From NCBI GenBank assembly GCA_037441365.1, contig JBBISG010000003.1, positions 14,624 to 78,623 on the forward strand: 64,000 bases of DNA, read 5' to 3'. Under the pieces are notes generated by a model. That model was not told where the DNA came from, made no database searches, and saw only the letters and a program-made list of their open reading frames with translations. A program made the position numbers and the translations under genes. The first letter of the stretch is position 1. The number at the start of each line of letters is the position of its first letter. Source of the stretch: Nitrospirota bacterium. Its GTDB lineage: Bacteria; Nitrospirota; Thermodesulfovibrionia; Thermodesulfovibrionales; UBA9159. Below are positions 5,418 through 18,384 of this stretch, piece after piece.

Positions 5418-5837
5418 ATGCAGATAACGCGAGAGGCCGACTATGCAATAAGGTGTGTGCTTCATCTCTCAGAATCTGAGGGTGAGATTGTTATGGTGAA
5501 TGAGATCGCAAAGGCAAGAAAGATACCGCGAAGCTTTCTTGCCAAGATACTCCAGAGACTTGCAAAGGCAGGGATTATTAAATCCTTCAGGGGTGTAAAT
5601 GGCGGTTACCAGCTTGCAAAGAGTCCTGAAAAGATCAATCTCCTTGATGTTATCGAGGCCATAGATGGGCCTGTTGCTATGAACAGGTGCGCTATAGACA
5701 GGAGGATGTGCAGTCTGAGTGATGAATGTGTTGTCCATCCTGTGTGGGTTGAACTCAGAAAAGAGACAGAAAGGCGTCTGAGGAAGATAGACTTCAGGCG
5801 TCTAATGGTGTTGCAGGTAGGGGTCGTGAAGGGATAA
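5418..5837 (+). CDS. Rrf2 family transcriptional regulator (IscR/NsrR-like, Cys-containing)
   Basis: 139 aa; MQITREADYAIRCVLHL start, wHTH, C-terminal Cys cluster C-x6-C-x5-C (NRCAIDRRMCSLSDEC). Confidence 0.9.
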   Translation: MQITREADYAIRCVLHLSESEGEIVMVNEIAKARKIPRSFLAKILQRLAKAGIIKSFRGVNGGYQLAKSPEKINLLDVIEAIDGPVAMNRCAIDRRMCSLSDECVVHPVWVELRKETERRLRKIDFRRLMVLQVGVVKG

Positions 5838-11258: not shown

Positions 11259-12035
11259 ATGGCAACAGTACTCTTTGATAATGGTGTTCATAAATGTATC
11301 GTCTTTGATGATATTTTAAGCGGAGATGTTAGAGGGACGGACATCCAGGCAAACCAGTTCCTTATAATACACAATGGTGAAGGATTACTGTATGACCCTG
11401 GGGGGAGTAAGGTTTTTGATCCCCTTTATAAAAGGGTTTCAGAATTTATTAAACCTTCGAGGATAAAGACCATCGTGCTTTCCCATCAGGACCCTGACAC
11501 AGGGGCTGCTATAAACTGGTGGATGCTGTTTTCAGCATCTAAGGTCTTTGTGCCGAGTCTCTGGATAAGGTTTATACCACATTTTACCAGATTAGACGTT
11601 GAAGCGGGTTACTATGTCCCCATACCTGAACAGGGGATGCGATATGATTTTCATGGCTCAGAGATAATTATGCTGCCAGCACATTTTCTACATTCCCCTG
11701 GTAATGTCCAGCTTTATGATACAGCCTCGAAGATACTCTTTTCGGGCGACCTGGGGACATCTATTGTTCCCGATGCAAAGTGGTTTACAGAGGTGATAGA
11801 TTTTGAAGAGCATGTGAGATATATGGAAGGCTTTCACAAGAGATATATAGCCTCTCAGAAGGCGTGCAGGCTATGGGCTAATATGGTGAGGAGATTGGAT
11901 ATTGAGGCAATAGTTCCCCAGCATGGACATAGATACTTTAAGGGTAAAGCTATGGTCAACAGATTTATTGACTGGATAAGTGATCTACAGTGTGGCGTGG
12001 ACTTACTCGATGGGGAAAACTACAAAATTCCATAG
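11259..12035 (+). CDS. MBL-fold metallo-protein (variant HQDPD motif; diiron/ODP-like possible)
   Basis: 258 aa; LSHQDPDTGAAINWW in place of HxHxDH; later His/Asp ligand contexts HFLHSPG, FSGDLG, PQHG. Confidence 0.65.
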   Translation: MATVLFDNGVHKCIVFDDILSGDVRGTDIQANQFLIIHNGEGLLYDPGGSKVFDPLYKRVSEFIKPSRIKTIVLSHQDPDTGAAINWWMLFSASKVFVPSLWIRFIPHFTRLDVEAGYYVPIPEQGMRYDFHGSEIIMLPAHFLHSPGNVQLYDTASKILFSGDLGTSIVPDAKWFTEVIDFEEHVRYMEGFHKRYIASQKACRLWANMVRRLDIEAIVPQHGHRYFKGKAMVNRFIDWISDLQCGVDLLDGENYKIP

Positions 12036-12161: not shown

Positions 12162-13541
12162 ATGAGTCTACTCAAAGGGAAAGAGATGGCTTCTGATATT
12201 CTTTTTCCAATCCCAGATCGGGAGTCACGCCGCCTTGCTGCCGGCTGGCTGATACTCAGCATAGCATCCCTTGTCGCTGCCGGATTATTTTCGATAGTCC
12301 TTGTGCTGTCGCGAACACCCTATGTGCAGAACATCTTCCCATGGGTGGATTTTTTTCATTCAGCCCTGGTTGTGCATGTGGACCTTTCGATCCTGATATG
12401 GTTTCTCTGCTTTGGAGGTGTGTTGTGGAGTATAAACTCTCTCCCGAGGTGGTCGGGTCTGGGCTGGCTGTCCCTTTTCCTTTCAGCTTCAGGAGGTTTA
12501 ATAATAGCTATTTCGCCATTTCTCGGAGCAGGTCGCCCTCTCATGAACAACTACGTGCCTGTCCTTCAGGACCCTATGTTTTTTGCCGGACTTGCAGTAT
12601 TTGCAGTAGGAATCCTCCTGATGCTGGCGCGAAGTTTAGCAGCTCATACCCCTCTGGGGAGTCTGATGGATATTGCGAGTGGATTAAGATTCGGGATTTA
12701 TGCCTCGTCGATGACTGCATCTATCGGAGCGGTTGCGATTGTCTGGTCGTATCTGACTATCCCCGATGCCATTCAGGGCACGGTGTATTATGAGGTTCTC
12801 TTCTGGGGAGGGGGGCATATCCTTCAGTTTGTATATCTCATACTCATGCTTGTTGCATGGCTGTGGTTGGCCTATGTTTCTGGTATACCCTTTCGCATGA
12901 GTCCACTGATAGTTATCCTTCTATTTGGGCTCCTCCTTGCGGTGGTTCTTCTTACCCCGGTGATTTATCTATCCTTTGATACAGGCTCATTTGGGCATCG
13001 GCAGTCATTCACCCTGTTGATGAAATACGGCATGGGGCTGCCGCCACTCTTGATCGGCATGGTTTTGCTGAAGGGGATTTTGCAGAGAAAGGCCACTGAA
13101 AATATGCGCCATATCCGTGCAGCCCTTACCACCTCTATGGTGCTTTTTGGATCTGGTGGGGTTATCGGTTTCTTAATCAATGGCATTAATGTCACTATAC
13201 CATCCCATTATCATGGCGCTATTGTAGGAGTGACCCTGTCATTCATGGGATTGACTTACTATCTATTGCCCCATCTCGGTTTCCGCAATCCCACACCCCG
13301 CCTCTCCATCATCCAGCCCTATATTTATGGTATTGGCCAGCTTTTGCACATCCTCGGCCTCGCCTGGGCAGGCGGCTATGGTGTCCAGCGCAAGGTGGCA
13401 GGCAGCGCTCAGGGCCTGGATAGCTTCAAGAAGATGTTGAGCATGGGGATCATGGGCATTGGTGGATTTATAGCCGTTATCGGAGGCTTCCTGTTTTTAG
13501 TGGTGGTTATTCATGCCTTGTGGCCTACCCGTGAACAGTGA
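12162..13541 (+). CDS. heme-copper-oxidase-subunit-I-like 12-TM membrane protein (divergent)
   Basis: start moved to ATG 12162 (alt 12186) past the REP copy; LFWGGGHILQF and GGVIGF...IPSHYHGAIVG parallel helix VI and X motifs of the coxI in this window. Confidence 0.5.
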   Translation: MSLLKGKEMASDILFPIPDRESRRLAAGWLILSIASLVAAGLFSIVLVLSRTPYVQNIFPWVDFFHSALVVHVDLSILIWFLCFGGVLWSINSLPRWSGLGWLSLFLSASGGLIIAISPFLGAGRPLMNNYVPVLQDPMFFAGLAVFAVGILLMLARSLAAHTPLGSLMDIASGLRFGIYASSMTASIGAVAIVWSYLTIPDAIQGTVYYEVLFWGGGHILQFVYLILMLVAWLWLAYVSGIPFRMSPLIVILLFGLLLAVVLLTPVIYLSFDTGSFGHRQSFTLLMKYGMGLPPLLIGMVLLKGILQRKATENMRHIRAALTTSMVLFGSGGVIGFLINGINVTIPSHYHGAIVGVTLSFMGLTYYLLPHLGFRNPTPRLSIIQPYIYGIGQLLHILGLAWAGGYGVQRKVAGSAQGLDSFKKMLSMGIMGIGGFIAVIGGFLFLVVVIHALWPTREQ

Positions 13542-13661
13542 GCAATATTTTCCTATTTCCTATTTCCCAGCTTCATCAATGCGGTAGTGCGATAGTCTGA
13601 CTGTCACTCAGCTGCCCCTCAGTATTCAATTTTGAATTATAAAGTTACCTAAAATTATAAC

Positions 13662-13691
13662 TTGACAATTTTAAGAATTCAGGATTAAAAT
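13662..13691 (+). promoter_or_regulatory. sigma-70-like promoter (TTGACA-18 nt-TAAAAT)
   Basis: read directly upstream of the 13870 operon. Confidence 0.4.
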
Positions 13692-13744
13692 AATCTTGAT
13701 TATGATTTACCGAAAAAACCGAGAAATGCTTTTTATGGTCAAAA

Positions 13745-13767
13745 AGGACGGTTTCCGTCCTGTTTTT
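13745..13767 (+). terminator. intrinsic-terminator-like hairpin in the 5' leader (AGGACGG-ttt-CCGTCCT + GTTTTT)
   Basis: 7-bp GC-rich stem, 3-nt loop, T-run; sits between the promoter at 13662 and the ATG at 13870. Confidence 0.4.
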
Positions 13768-13869
13768 AAATACCAAGAGGAGGGTTTAAGATGGCAGAAG
13801 AAGCAGTAGGTATGAATGGAAACCTGTAAAGGGTTTCGCTCATTAAAAACTAAAAAGGAGGAAATTGAT

Positions 13870-15207
13870 ATGTATCCTATCTGGGAAGTGCCAAATTTAA
13901 GTGCGGGGATTATACTGGCACTGATTGCAGCATTTCATATCCTGCCCTCACATCTCTCGACAAGTGCCATGTGGTTTAATGTCTTTGTAGAGACAAAGGC
14001 ATACAGGGAAAACAGGCCTGAATATCTTGAATTCATTAAAAAATACACTCTGCTTTTGCTTGTATTCGCCTATGTCCTCGGTTCCTTGAGCGGAATTGGC
14101 ATCTGGTATTCTGCCACTGTGGCAAACCCGAGGGGTATTTCAGGTCTGATCCACAACTATGTCTGGGGATGGGCAACAGAATGGGTCTTTTTCATAATCG
14201 AGGTGACAGGGATATTCATCTATTACTATACCCTCGGCAAGGTGGATAGAAAGACCCATCTGAAGATCGGCTGGATATTTGCCATTGGCTCATGGACGAC
14301 CATGGTAATTATTGTCGGCATTTTAGCCTTTATGCTTTCGCCAGGCAAATGGCCTGAGACAGGAAATTTCTTTGACGGCTTCTTCAACCAGACATACTGG
14401 TCTCAGCTTTTGATGAGGACTACATTGATGTTTGGCATTGCAGCAGCCTATGCCATTGCAGTGGCAACGAGGATAAAAAATGCGGATGTGAGGTCATTCA
14501 TTACGAAGACAGCATCAAAGTGGGGAGTAGCAGGTTTAATACTCGGCTGTGTTTTGTTCTTATGGTACCTGAAGACCCTTCCTGATGCAAACCGTATGTT
14601 GATTACAGCGCTTGTGCCGCAGGGACTTAAGACAGGGATAATTGTTTCGTTAGGGTTGTTGGTTCTCTATTTCATCTATGCAAATGTAAAACCTCTCGGC
14701 ATCAGACTTTTTCCTGCTATTCTGGCAATCGCTGTGCTTTTTGGAGGCATCTGGTCAACCGAGAGAATCAGGGAAATGATAAGGAAGCCATATATCATTC
14801 CTCAATATATGTATTCCAACCAGATAATAGGAAAGGACATTCCAGCAAAGGGTGTAAGCGCTGAGGCAAAAATTATAAACGAAAAGGGGATACTCAAGGT
14901 TGCACCCTTTGTGCCTGATGGTTTAAGGGAGATAAACGAAGGCAATCAGGTGCAGGCAGGAAAGATGATAGCCCTGATTGAATGCTCATCCTGTCATGTC
15001 CTAAATGAAAAGGGTTTAAGGGCAATGCCGCAGATGGTGAGGAGGCTTGAGTTTAAACCCCATGCAGAGGCTGCTGATGAGATCAAAGAGGTTGAGGGCT
15101 TTATTGATGCGCTTGGTGGATACCCTTATATGCCGCCTTTTGTTGGTTCAGTAGCAGAGAAAAAGGCATTAGCAACATATCTGCATTCAATTTCACGCAT
15201 CAAATAA
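13870..15207 (+). CDS. cytochrome bd subunit-I-like membrane domain fused to a C-terminal mono-heme cytochrome c
   Basis: ATG 13870 has an AAAGGAGGA SD; N-terminal helices recall CydA (AFHILPSHLS, ATEWVFFIIEVTG); C-terminal CSSCH with downstream Met. Confidence 0.5.
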   Translation: MYPIWEVPNLSAGIILALIAAFHILPSHLSTSAMWFNVFVETKAYRENRPEYLEFIKKYTLLLLVFAYVLGSLSGIGIWYSATVANPRGISGLIHNYVWGWATEWVFFIIEVTGIFIYYYTLGKVDRKTHLKIGWIFAIGSWTTMVIIVGILAFMLSPGKWPETGNFFDGFFNQTYWSQLLMRTTLMFGIAAAYAIAVATRIKNADVRSFITKTASKWGVAGLILGCVLFLWYLKTLPDANRMLITALVPQGLKTGIIVSLGLLVLYFIYANVKPLGIRLFPAILAIAVLFGGIWSTERIREMIRKPYIIPQYMYSNQIIGKDIPAKGVSAEAKIINEKGILKVAPFVPDGLREINEGNQVQAGKMIALIECSSCHVLNEKGLRAMPQMVRRLEFKPHAEAADEIKEVEGFIDALGGYPYMPPFVGSVAEKKALATYLHSISRIK

Positions 15208-15217
15208 GGAGGATAAC

Positions 15218-16429
15218 ATGGAAATAAATACAATGTTAAAGGCCTTGCAGGATCCGATGGGGGTACCATTTTATCCGGTTGTGTTTCAGGTTTTGATGGT
15301 GCTCACTTTTGCACTTCATATAATGTTCGTGAATTTTACCCTCGGGACATCATTCTTATCCGTATATGGATATCTAAAGGGAGGAGAAAACTGGGGAAGG
15401 CTTTCTAGATCACTTGCGAAGGCAACCACAGCCAATATCTCCATGGCAATGCTTTTAGGGGTAGCGCCGCTTCTCTTTGTTCAGGTTGTGTATGACCCGT
15501 TCTGGTATGCATCCAATACCCTTTCTGCCGCATGGGTTATAGGTTTTATATTCATAATGATGCTCGGCTACAGCCTGACATATGTCTTCTACCTGAAGAG
15601 GGATTCAAGGGGAGGAGGCTTTGCTATATTCGGGGTTATAGCCTTAGCCCTCTTTCTGCTTTCAGGCATCATCATGCATGCCCTCGGGTATCAACTGCTT
15701 CAACCTGAAAAGTGGCTTCAATGGTATGTGAGGGGAAATTCTGTTGATACATCCGGGACATCCCTACATGCCTTCCAGCTTCCGAGGTTTCTGCATTTCA
15801 TTATCCCGTCCTTTGCCATGACAGGCATATTCCTGATGCTTTATGCATGGTATTTCAAAAACAGGACAGATTCCGATAAAGGCTATCTTGAATGGGTTGG
15901 CAGAACCGGCGCAAAGATGGCATTCACTTTTACAGCCATACAGGCCATTGTCGGCTTCTGGTGGTTGTTCAGTCTGCCTGGTGAGTTCAATTTCTTCACA
16001 AGCCCGTTCTTTCTAATAGGCGCAGCGCTTGGAATCGCATTGCTGTTTTTTCTCTATAATGCGCAGAAGGATCCCGTTAAATACGCAGTGCCGGGCATAC
16101 TGGGGGCTTTCCTGACAATCCTTGGAATGTCCTATGCGAGGGAAGCTTTGAGGATGAAATATCTCAGCCGCTTTGATTATTCCATCTTTAACTACAAGCT
16201 GAATATTGACTGGGGCAGCACAGCCTTATTCCTAACAACATTTGTGATGGGCCTGTCCATCATAGGCTATCTTATATCCGTTGCATATAAGTCCGGCAGG
16301 GTCGCGGGTGAATTTACTGCCACGCCTTCCATGAACAAATGGGGAAGGATCAGCATTGCCTTGCTTTTGGCCTGGATAGTTGTGGTGGCAGGGTTGGGGG
16401 TTATAATATCTCTCAAAAACTACTTATGA
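15218..16429 (+). CDS. polytopic membrane protein, operon partner of the bd-like subunit (function unknown)
   Basis: 403 aa, about 9-10 hydrophobic helices; AAGGAGGA SD; 10-nt gap from the upstream gene. Confidence 0.5.
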   Translation: MEINTMLKALQDPMGVPFYPVVFQVLMVLTFALHIMFVNFTLGTSFLSVYGYLKGGENWGRLSRSLAKATTANISMAMLLGVAPLLFVQVVYDPFWYASNTLSAAWVIGFIFIMMLGYSLTYVFYLKRDSRGGGFAIFGVIALALFLLSGIIMHALGYQLLQPEKWLQWYVRGNSVDTSGTSLHAFQLPRFLHFIIPSFAMTGIFLMLYAWYFKNRTDSDKGYLEWVGRTGAKMAFTFTAIQAIVGFWWLFSLPGEFNFFTSPFFLIGAALGIALLFFLYNAQKDPVKYAVPGILGAFLTILGMSYAREALRMKYLSRFDYSIFNYKLNIDWGSTALFLTTFVMGLSIIGYLISVAYKSGRVAGEFTATPSMNKWGRISIALLLAWIVVVAGLGVIISLKNYL

Positions 16430-16471: not shown

Positions 16472-16648
16472 TTAATTTGTGAGCCTTTCATTTTTGAAGA
16501 CCCTGTAGCCGCAGAAGTGGCATACCGTCTCCTCTTCATCCGACCAGAGCTCAACATCCTCCCCACATTCCGGACAGGTGATGAGATCAGGGAAAGGTGA
16601 GTATTTTTCAGCACAGGCAGGTTTTTCCTTAAACCCCGACTTTTTCAT
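16472..16648 (-). CDS. 58-aa zinc-ribbon protein (CPEC-x15-CHFC), below the track cutoff
   Basis: hand translation MKKSGFKEKPACAEKYSPFPDLITCPECGEDVELWSDEEETVCHFCGYRVFKNERLTN*; ATG overlaps the end of the upstream gene by 20 nt. Confidence 0.45.
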   Translation of the reverse strand: MKKSGFKEKPACAEKYSPFPDLITCPECGEDVELWSDEEETVCHFCGYRVFKNERLTN

Positions 16649-17078
16649 TTGCCTTCCTCCAGCCTTCCCTCGACAGTCTCTCCATCCTTGTGGTGGCCCA
16701 TTCCTTGAGCTCCTCGAGATATCTCCGGGGATTTATCTTTGCAAGCTTCATTATCTCTGTTCTTTCCACTACGCTGTCCAGATGGTCTGTGGGATAAATT
16801 CCTCGCCATGTACAGTAACCCTCATCAAAGATAAAATCAGGGGTTATATTGTGGACACCTGTCTTTATCTTCTGTGCCTGAAATCTTGCAATGTCCATAT
16901 CGTATTCAATAATCCAGCCGTTGTCGGCCACCATCGTCTCTGGATTGAATTTGATACTACTCGAACACTGCGGACAGTACAGCCTGCTTATGACCTCACC
17001 TGACATTATCTCGTCTTTGAAGTTGAAGCCTGCCAGGCCGTTTCCACAACTACAGTTTATTTCATATGCCATGCACAT
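16629..17078 (-). CDS. hypothetical Cys-motif protein (CSCGNG ... CPQCSS)
   Basis: 149 aa from ATG 17078 (AAGGAGGA SD 7 nt upstream); no family recognised. Confidence 0.6.
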   Translation of the reverse strand: MCMAYEINCSCGNGLAGFNFKDEIMSGEVISRLYCPQCSSSIKFNPETMVADNGWIIEYDMDIARFQAQKIKTGVHNITPDFIFDEGYCTWRGIYPTDHLDSVVERTEIMKLAKINPRRYLEELKEWATTRMERLSREGWRKANEKVGV

Positions 17079-17100
17079 CTCCAAATCCTCCTTAGGTTTT

Positions 17101-17772: not shown

Positions 17773-18384
17773 CTATTTCAGTGCCTCATATACCTTTCCA
17801 ACCAGCTTTGCGGATGGTTTAAGTGTCCTGTCACCTTCATCCTTCCATTTTGATGGGCAGCCTTCATCCGTATGTTTTGCAAGATGGAGATTAGCCTTAA
17901 ACTTTCTCATTAATTCATCAATATTTCTGCCCATATTGTAGTAGTTTACCTCTGAATTAAGGAGTTTCCCCTCAGGGCTGATTATAAATGTCCCTCTCAA
18001 TGCAAGGCCTGTTGCATCATCATATACGCCAAACATCCTTGAGACCTTCCCTGTAGGGTCTGCAGCCATCGGATATTTCACATCGGCGAGCATTTTCTCT
18101 TCCCTCTGCCATGCAAGATGGACAAACTTTGTGTCTGTGCTGACTGTGATGACCTCAGCTCCCATTTTTTTGAATCTCTCATACTGCTCTGCCAGAGCAG
18201 CAAATTCTGTAGCTCAAACAAATGTAAAGTCCGCAGGATAGAAAACAAGTATCGTCCATTTCTTGTTCGCCTTTAGCGTTTCAAGACTGACCTCACCAAA
18301 ATCACCCTTTGACGGCTCGAAGGTCTCGAGCTTAAAATCCGGGACCATCTGTCCCACCATTAAACCACAGCAATTCTCACTCAT
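17773..18384 (-). CDS. 2-Cys peroxiredoxin with selenocysteine (UGA codon 57) at the peroxidatic position
   Basis: ATG 18384 with AAGGAGGT SD; MSENCCGLMVGQMVPDFKLETFEPSKGDFGEVSLETLKANKKWTILVFYPADFTFV-TGA(18216..18214)-ATEFAALAEQYERFKK then the 130-aa track ORF in the same frame; resolving-Cys motif EGCPSKW. Confidence 0.75.
18182..18202 (-). other. candidate bacterial SECIS hairpin (UGCUGCUCU-GGC-AGAGCAGUA)
   Basis: 9-bp stem starting 11 nt 3' of the UGA. Confidence 0.5.

Follow-up and report, generated by a model that had tools for sequence, protein, structure and literature searches.

A candidate cytochrome c:O2 oxidoreductase of the OR-C type, with a fused haem c domain, in a Thermodesulfovibrionales genome

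In a 64,000-nucleotide stretch of the genome of a Nitrospirota bacterium belonging to the Thermodesulfovibrionales (GenBank assembly GCA_037441365.1, contig JBBISG010000003.1, positions 14,624 to 78,623; this whole stretch is called the window), two adjoining plus-strand genes encode a divergent pair of cytochrome bd-type membrane proteins. Gene A (13870-15207) encodes a CydA homologue of 445 aa, made of eight transmembrane (TM) helices, a linker and a cytochrome c domain, and gene B (15218-16429) its partner, a protein of 403 aa with ten predicted TM helices, no cysteine and no haem c. Murali, Gennis & Hemp split the bd superfamily by phylogenomics into qOR, OR-C and OR-N (2021; bioRxiv 10.1101/2021.01.16.426971; ISME J 15:3534). 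In this classification A is an OR-C1a and B an OR-C1b protein, and the pair fits every listed feature, save the helix count of B. It is a further member of a family catalogued in 2021, and not a new system. The function that we favour, and hold to be fairly probable on the conserved residues, is that of a cytochrome c:O2 oxidoreductase.

The association of the two genes was found at almost all of the loci compared. One genome per GTDB species was scanned, which gave 239 encoded relatives of A, and 80 loci were kept for neighbourhood counts. B was directly downstream of A in 79 of these, with gaps ranging from 6 to 457 nt, nearly all below 150 nt; at the exception, L014, A was followed by unrelated DNA. 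A profile of B, searched against 1.84 billion representative proteins, matched 1,349 clusters at 50% identity (E≤1e-3). With more than 800 homologues for A, more than 800 for B, and adjacency in 79 loci out of 80, the A/B feature stands far above chance. Hosts were Nitrospirota (Thermodesulfovibrionales), Thermodesulfobacteriota, Syntrophales, Elusimicrobiota, Acidobacteriota, Aquificota, Deferribacteres and Lentisphaerota. In the window, B starts 10 nt past the stop codon of A and has its own AAGGAGG, so that the two proteins are probably translated together from one mRNA.

The ATG at 13870 was retained as the start of A, because it lies 8 nt downstream of an AAGGAGG Shine-Dalgarno sequence (13855-13861) and homologues are 436-445 aa long. 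A longer frame starting from ATG 13816 was rejected, as it has no comparable Shine-Dalgarno sequence and exceeds the length of the homologues. The first-pass annotation, made from the DNA letters, had described the first part of A as CydA-like, and this was borne out. Pfam assigned A to Cyt_bd_oxida_I (PF01654) with 32 bits, above the gathering threshold (26.2); the match extends over positions 6-216 of the 418 in the profile, corresponding to TM1 to TM5. The AlphaFold2 (AF2) model of A (mean pLDDT 79) comprises eight TM helices, a disordered linker and a small helical domain, and its 11 Foldseek matches at E≤1e-3 were all bd-oxidase subunits, the best being 7oy2_C (E 5.5e-6). The closest relatives of A, up to 95% identical, are in metagenome-assembled genomes of Nitrospirae/Thermodesulfovibrionales. 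Searches of PDB sequences with A, either as a single sequence or as a narrow profile, returned no bd oxidase and just weak cytochrome c matches, and narrow profiles of A and B aligned by hhalign to single E. coli CydA or CydB sequences were uninformative (probabilities below 5%). Comparison of the pair with CydA required an alignment of CydA sequences, a deeper alignment of B (90 of its 1,349 profile matches), and excision of the Q-loop.

The E. coli cydA and cydB sequences were fetched, and the standard residue numbering of CydA was verified on them. A hidden Markov model of the A family compared with CydA, together with profile-profile alignments, placed H23 of A (13936-13938) on H19, E104 and E111 (14179-14202) on E99 and E107, and H130 (14257-14259) on H126, all within the membrane domain (residues 1-304, 13870-14781), whose N-terminus is outside. 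The two alignments to CydA given in the first-pass annotation hold against the real protein. The glutamates of A are spaced as E-x6-E (E-WVFFII-E), one residue shorter than in CydA. Conservation was counted over 73 homologues from other genomes, 46-95% identical to A: H23, E104, E111, R301, E302 and R305 were invariant, or absent from one gapped sequence alone, and H130, C372, C375, H376 and M421 were invariant or nearly so. The TM1-4 bundle, which in CydA houses the O2-reducing haem site, is retained in A together with the H19 ligand and the proton pathway of E99, E107 and H126. At the H186 position, which had also been suspected of being changed, stands M182 of QLLMRTT, variable among homologues (T/M/A/L), and no methionine occupies the M393 position; from these alignments, both haem b558 ligands are absent from A. 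The Q-loop is also absent, TM6 and TM7 being just 13 residues apart.

When the Q-loop was excised from the CydA alignment, A was collinear with it over TM1-TM8 (283 columns, E 7.8e-4). In this same alignment, E302-M-I-R305-K-P307-Y308 of A fell on E445-Y-G-R448-Q-P450-W451 of CydA. The motif (E298-R-I-R-E-M-I-R-K-P-Y308, 14761-14793) starts in the membrane domain and sits at the equivalent helix end, that of TM8. It is the best local match in its region, and E302, R305 and P307 were invariant in 73/73 homologues. If this mapping is right, A would have every ligand of the di-haem site at which O2 is reduced (H19, E99, E445), lacking only haem b558, and the electron-entry role of the latter would pass to haem c. 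The E-x-x-R-x-P-Y motif aligned with E445/R448 goes beyond what was found in the excerpts of the 2021 preprint.

TM8 is connected by a low-confidence linker (residues 305-330, 14782-14859; AF2 pLDDT below 50 at 306-331) to a class-I cytochrome c domain (residues 331-445, 14860-15204), recognized by weak profile matches and conserved motifs. The CSSCH at residues 372-376 (14983-14997) was kept in 72/73 homologues, and the putative distal methionine M421, in MPPF (15130-15141), in 71/73, in agreement with the heme-c domain announced by the first-pass annotation. Two Pfam profiles covered this region, both below their cut-offs, Cytochrome_CBB3 with 22.7 bits and Cytochrom_C with 18.6 bits; the matches span residues 378-459 of the 463-aa reading, that is 360-441 of the 445-aa protein. 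Weak profile matches to CcoP, c6, c551 and c552 spanned the CxxCH and methionine region, and a cytochrome c domain is also recorded for many homologues of A. Attachment of haem to CxxCH takes place in the periplasm only. A periplasmic location of the domain had been proposed together with a call to check it by predicting topology. The family-mean number of lysines and arginines was 10.7 on the four predicted inner loops, whereas the four outer segments that precede TM8 had 3.1. This bias supports an outside N-terminus, as in CydA, and consequently a C-terminal haem c domain in the periplasm. One outer segment is positively charged, namely the invariant E298-R-x-R301-E302-x-x-R305-[KR]-P307-Y motif at the end of TM8. 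A carries after TM8, on the periplasmic side, what its sequence marks as a His/Met class-I haem c domain, the attachment of the haem itself being predicted. Entry of electrons from cytochrome c rather than from quinol, which the first-pass annotation had put forward, would be the natural consequence of these features, and it is also what Murali et al. proposed for this family.

B gave no match in Pfam, NCBIfam or PDB sequences in single-sequence and narrow-profile searches. It had been described as not obviously resembling CydB, which held at the level of plain sequence; it did not hold as to family, since B turned out to belong to the bd family as a paralogue of CydA. Narrow profiles of A and B were collinear over 280 columns (E 2.3e-4). 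With the deeper alignment of B, hhalign gave a 96% probability and E 2.1e-9 over 278 columns against the A family, and E 4.3e-4 over 213 columns against canonical CydA. The homology between A and B spans the entire 8-TM core. A distant relative of B, P0510, passes Cyt_bd_oxida_I alone, with 38.4 bits. The AF2 model of B (mean pLDDT 78, ten TM helices) had bd subunits as its three best Foldseek matches: 9r2g_A, the CydA of M. smegmatis bd-II (TM-score 0.57-0.60), 6rx4_A, which is E. coli CydA, and 9r2g_D, of the CydB type. The sequence comparisons and the model together identify B as a very divergent CydA paralogue, and a bd-family subunit.

H34 of B (15317-15319), equivalent to CydA H19, was invariant in 90/90 sequences. 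H193, in PRFLHF, fell on H186 of CydA, in VKFVHT, in three independent but weak alignments (R190 to H193, 15785-15796). Another histidine of B is H154 (15677-15679). Both channel glutamates are absent, and TM3 of B has no glutamate. B shares with A the motif R308-E309-x-x-R312-x-x-Y315, within M304 to Y315 (16127-16162). The equivalents of H19 and H186 in B go beyond what was found in the excerpts of the 2021 preprint. The two extra helices of B (residues 332-402) come after the shared 8-TM core, and relatives of about 360 aa match profile positions 12-360 only; we treated these helices as a clade-specific extension. Among the relatives of B, shorter ones (P0402-P0510, about 350-385 aa) are devoid of the last two helices, and one of 588 aa, P0362, has a dihaem cytochrome c fused at its C-terminus.

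After the bd subunits, the next Foldseek matches of B were ActF and ActC, the NrfD-like subunits of alternative complex III (E 0.014-0.036, probability 1.0). This opens another reading, in which the pair is not a terminal reductase, and is instead a bd-fold quinol:cytochrome c oxidoreductase, or its reverse, with B interacting with quinone and the haem c of A as a periplasmic outlet. The fused dihaem cytochrome c found in some B relatives such as P0362 goes in the same direction, and E. coli CydB holds a structural quinone. However, bd subunits outscore ActF for B, and do so by far for A, A has neither a Q-loop nor any other recognizable quinol site, and the invariant E104/E111/H130 together with H23/E302 would be difficult to account for if no chemistry took place at a buried haem. 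We regard this exchange of electrons with quinone as rather improbable.

The comparison with known systems supports the OR-C assignment. As defined in the preprint (bioRxiv 10.1101/2021.01.16.426971), OR-C1a is an 8-TM CydA that has lost the quinol site, has a C-terminal periplasmic haem c, and keeps H19, E99 and E107; OR-C1b is the paralogue adjoining OR-C1a, stated to have eight TM helices; and cytochrome c is the presumed donor. A has this helix number, no quinol site or Q-loop, and the C-terminal periplasmic CxxCH domain. Its H23/E104/E111/H130, its E-x6-E spacing, with six residues between the glutamates, and the nearby tyrosines Y118/Y120 agree with the OR-C1a row of Table S6, as does the loss of H186 and M393. 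An adjoining paralogous 'b' subunit without the channel glutamates is likewise found. Two points differ from the published description: B has ten predicted TM helices, not eight, and E302/R305 of A were aligned to E445/R448, marked absent in Table S6. B keeps equivalents of H19 and H186, and the excerpts of Table S6 that were compared have no OR-C1b row. The survey counted 532 OR-C in 24,706 GTDB genomes. Its lists place a Thermodesulfovibrio aggregans entry under OR-C1a, and under OR-C1b 'hypothetical proteins' without haem c from T. yellowstonii, T. thiophilus and Thermodesulfovibrio sp. N1; a Desulfovibrio vulgaris DP4 pair is present in both.

The canonical CydAB oxidases (E. coli bd-I and bd-II, Geobacillus, mycobacteria; qOR1-3) resemble A/B by the fold of both subunits, the outside N-terminus, the TM1-4 haem-site residues and proton channel kept in A, and a two-gene operon with subunit I first. 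Unlike them, A has no Q-loop, no haem b558 ligands and no TM9; its fused haem c, rather than quinol, would be the electron donor; and subunit II is a CydA paralogue with conserved histidines, not a CydB, with no CydX-like small open reading frame evident. In CydAA' (qOR4a/qOR4b; Caldivirga and other archaea), subunit II also comes from a CydA duplication, has kept the H19 equivalent and has lost the channel glutamates. In contrast to A, the CydA of CydAA' oxidizes quinol, keeps H186 and M393 and has no haem c, and O2 reductase activity has been measured for CydAA'. A third group, the 'bd-like' oxidases of Nitrospira and Ca. Manganitrophus, was the one to which the first-pass annotation had likened the pair. 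These are OR-N: they are CydA-like and lack a quinol site, their presumed donors being cytochrome c or others, but they form a separate clade with 10-14 TM helices, H186 kept, no fused haem c, and operon contexts of petABD and separate cytochromes c. A, which has eight TM helices and a fused haem c and lacks an H186 equivalent, is not of this group, and the likeness was abandoned in favour of OR-C. In the literature searched, no biochemically characterized complex was found to which the two genes belong, although the kind of pair had been catalogued as OR-C in 2021.

Under the favoured reading, A and B would most likely assemble, like CydA/CydB, into a pseudo-symmetric heterodimer of the cytoplasmic membrane. 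Electrons would enter from a periplasmic c-type cytochrome via the haem c of A, might be relayed by a haem b that B would bind with H193 and possibly H154, and would arrive at a high-spin haem site in A (H23, E104, probably E302). There, O2 would be reduced to water, the protons coming from the cytoplasm via E111/E104/H130, and a membrane potential would be built by charge separation, without pumping. In this genome of anaerobe-type Nitrospirota, the role could be micro-oxic respiration or O2 scavenging, beside a caa3 oxidase and peroxide defence genes.

Several points weigh against this proposal. The haem content and the O2 reduction of A/B are deduced from conserved residues only. In the literature searched, no biochemical characterization of OR-C was found, later papers merely citing the classification. 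The mapping of E302 on E445 comes from a weak alignment (probability 25%), the 9-residue motif taken alone is not significant (E 0.1), and Table S6 enters '-' for E445 in OR-C1a, contrary to this mapping; that of H193 on H186 in B also rests on weak alignments. With no conserved neighbour besides B, the O2-related gene context described below is particular to this lineage. Finally, a literature search by OR-C1a locus tags turned up SMUL_0150 alone, from Sulfurospirillum multivorans, which was 39.5-fold up once cells had adapted to fermenting pyruvate and, when fermentative and respiratory metabolism were compared, 8-fold higher in the former (PMC6242987). These proteomic data indicate that an OR-C1a protein is made, and caution against a purely aerobic role.

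The same induction without O2 (PMC6242987) would also fit the quinone-linked exchange considered above for B. Taken together with the histidine equivalents of B, its NrfD/ActF-like resemblance and the prevalence of the family in strict anaerobes, it would fit a related proposal, in which the OR-C pair, instead of reducing O2, is a new kind of bd-fold redox module that operates without oxygen and links periplasmic cytochromes c to the quinone pool or another acceptor, with B having a haem b and/or a quinone site. We give this proposal little credence.

Canonical bd oxidases have side activities on NO, H2O2 and peroxynitrite, and the same complex could be a cytochrome c-dependent reductase or detoxifier of one of these, rather than of O2. 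Flanking genes bear on this possibility. Clustering of the flanking open reading frames of the 80 loci revealed no conserved third gene above 12/80; the commonest clusters (histidine kinase, Rrf2, glucan phosphorylase, sigma-54 activator, PEP synthase) were all restricted to certain lineages. The sole recurring and functionally suggestive neighbour was an Rrf2-family regulator with a three-cysteine motif, directly upstream of A in 11/80 loci and at L004. This Fe-S type of regulator speaks for a detoxification role, as do the rubrerythrin, peroxiredoxin, Fur-family regulator and ODP (an O2/NO-binding di-iron family) encoded beside the pair in the window, the mostly strictly anaerobic hosts, and the anoxic, fermentative induction of SMUL_0150 (PMC6242987). 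When typed against the NCBIfam equivalogs (NsrR, IscR and others), however, the Rrf2 protein reached no threshold, that of NsrR included. The residues conserved in A moreover belong to the site of O2 reduction and to its proton channel, and no sequence feature separates the candidate substrates. On balance, we see a substrate other than O2 as unlikely.

A link with copper and cbb3 assembly genes (YtkA, DsbD_2, CcoI, CcoS) was rejected as a general one, being found in 3/80 loci and absent from the window. In Dissulfurispira-type genomes (L003 6708-9892; L014 563-4211; L016; L017), the pair is preceded by YtkA, DsbD_2, a CcoI-type copper ATPase and CcoS; these cbb3 assembly genes were upstream of the pair in the 3/80 loci and in D. 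thermophila, with an Rrf2 gene in between at L014.

The gene just upstream of A encodes a protein resembling haem-copper oxidases (HCO-like; 12093/12162-13541, plus strand). The first-pass annotation had grouped it (12162-13541) with A and B in a three-gene block of respiratory membrane proteins, and the three could in principle form one non-canonical, three-subunit complex, since they adjoin on the same strand in the window and in the close relative L009. Across the loci this grouping dissolved into local synteny: the HCO-like gene was within 8 kb of the pair in 2/80 loci, and at one of them, L006, it lies on the other side, downstream and past a convergent gene. A gap of about 330 nt containing a promoter-like site and a hairpin with a T-run separates it from A in the window, and A/B stand as an isolated pair in Elusimicrobiota and Desulfobacterota. 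A three-subunit complex is, on these counts, very improbable. The HCO-like protein itself is a very divergent COX1-family member (Pfam 42 bits over nearly the whole profile), without a PDB match by phmmer, and its gene was near the pair only in the two closest relatives. In a BLASTP alignment with the CoxA of the window, its IPSHYHGAI fell on the helix-X haem ligands, VAHFHNVL, and its GSFGHR on the CuB pair, WIHH, one CuB histidine being apparently replaced.

In the window, A and B end a same-strand cluster, in the order Rrf2 (5418-5837), Cox3, SCO1, CoxB-cytochrome c, CoxA, haem O synthase, ODP, HCO-like, A and B. Genes for rubrerythrin, peroxiredoxin and a Fur-family regulator are downstream and convergent, and the whole looks like an oxygen-handling island. 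The three-cysteine Rrf2 regulator at the head of the cluster is 61% identical to the one directly upstream of A in related loci, which suggests a single regulator for all the oxygen-related genes of the cluster. In the gap between the HCO-like gene and A (13542-13869), whose leader is not conserved in the nearest loci, a promoter-like site (13662-13691, plus strand; TTGACA, 18-nt spacer, TAAAAT, 11/12 matches) was recognized by its consensus alone, and such sites are as numerous in the region as expected from shuffled sequence; it may be the own promoter of the pair. The leader further contains a GC-rich hairpin followed by a T-run (13745-13770) and a 12-codon open reading frame with a strong Shine-Dalgarno sequence (13792-13830).

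Other genes of the region deserve mention. The ODP-family protein, of di-iron metallo-beta-lactamase fold (11259-12035, plus strand, Pfam 233 bits), is encoded between haem O synthase and the HCO-like protein, an unusual place for a protein usually described as O2/NO-sensing. The peroxiredoxin reading frame (17773-18165, minus strand) matches AhpC-TSA profile positions 59-121 only, and an independent assembly, L002, has a separate 56-aa AhpC-TSA piece beside it; the gene (17773-18165 and up to about 18400) looks split or frameshifted in both assemblies. Convergent on B, positions 16629-17084 (minus strand) encode a conserved cysteine-rich protein of 151 aa, with CxxC ... CPQC, zinc-ribbon-like and without a family match, which is also beside the pair at L006 and L007.

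Taken alone, this locus adds little that is new. It offers a compact, single-haem-c representative of OR-C and, in A, a candidate complete ligand set (H23, E104, E302); the conserved histidines of B suggest that the second subunit is not redox-inert. OR-C is widespread, chiefly in sulfate reducers, sulfur disproportionators, Elusimicrobiota and Aquificota. If such pairs do reduce O2 with periplasmic cytochrome c, they would constitute a third route of cytochrome c oxidation, besides haem-copper oxidases, and OR-C would probably help to explain how "strict" anaerobes withstand or exploit traces of O2.

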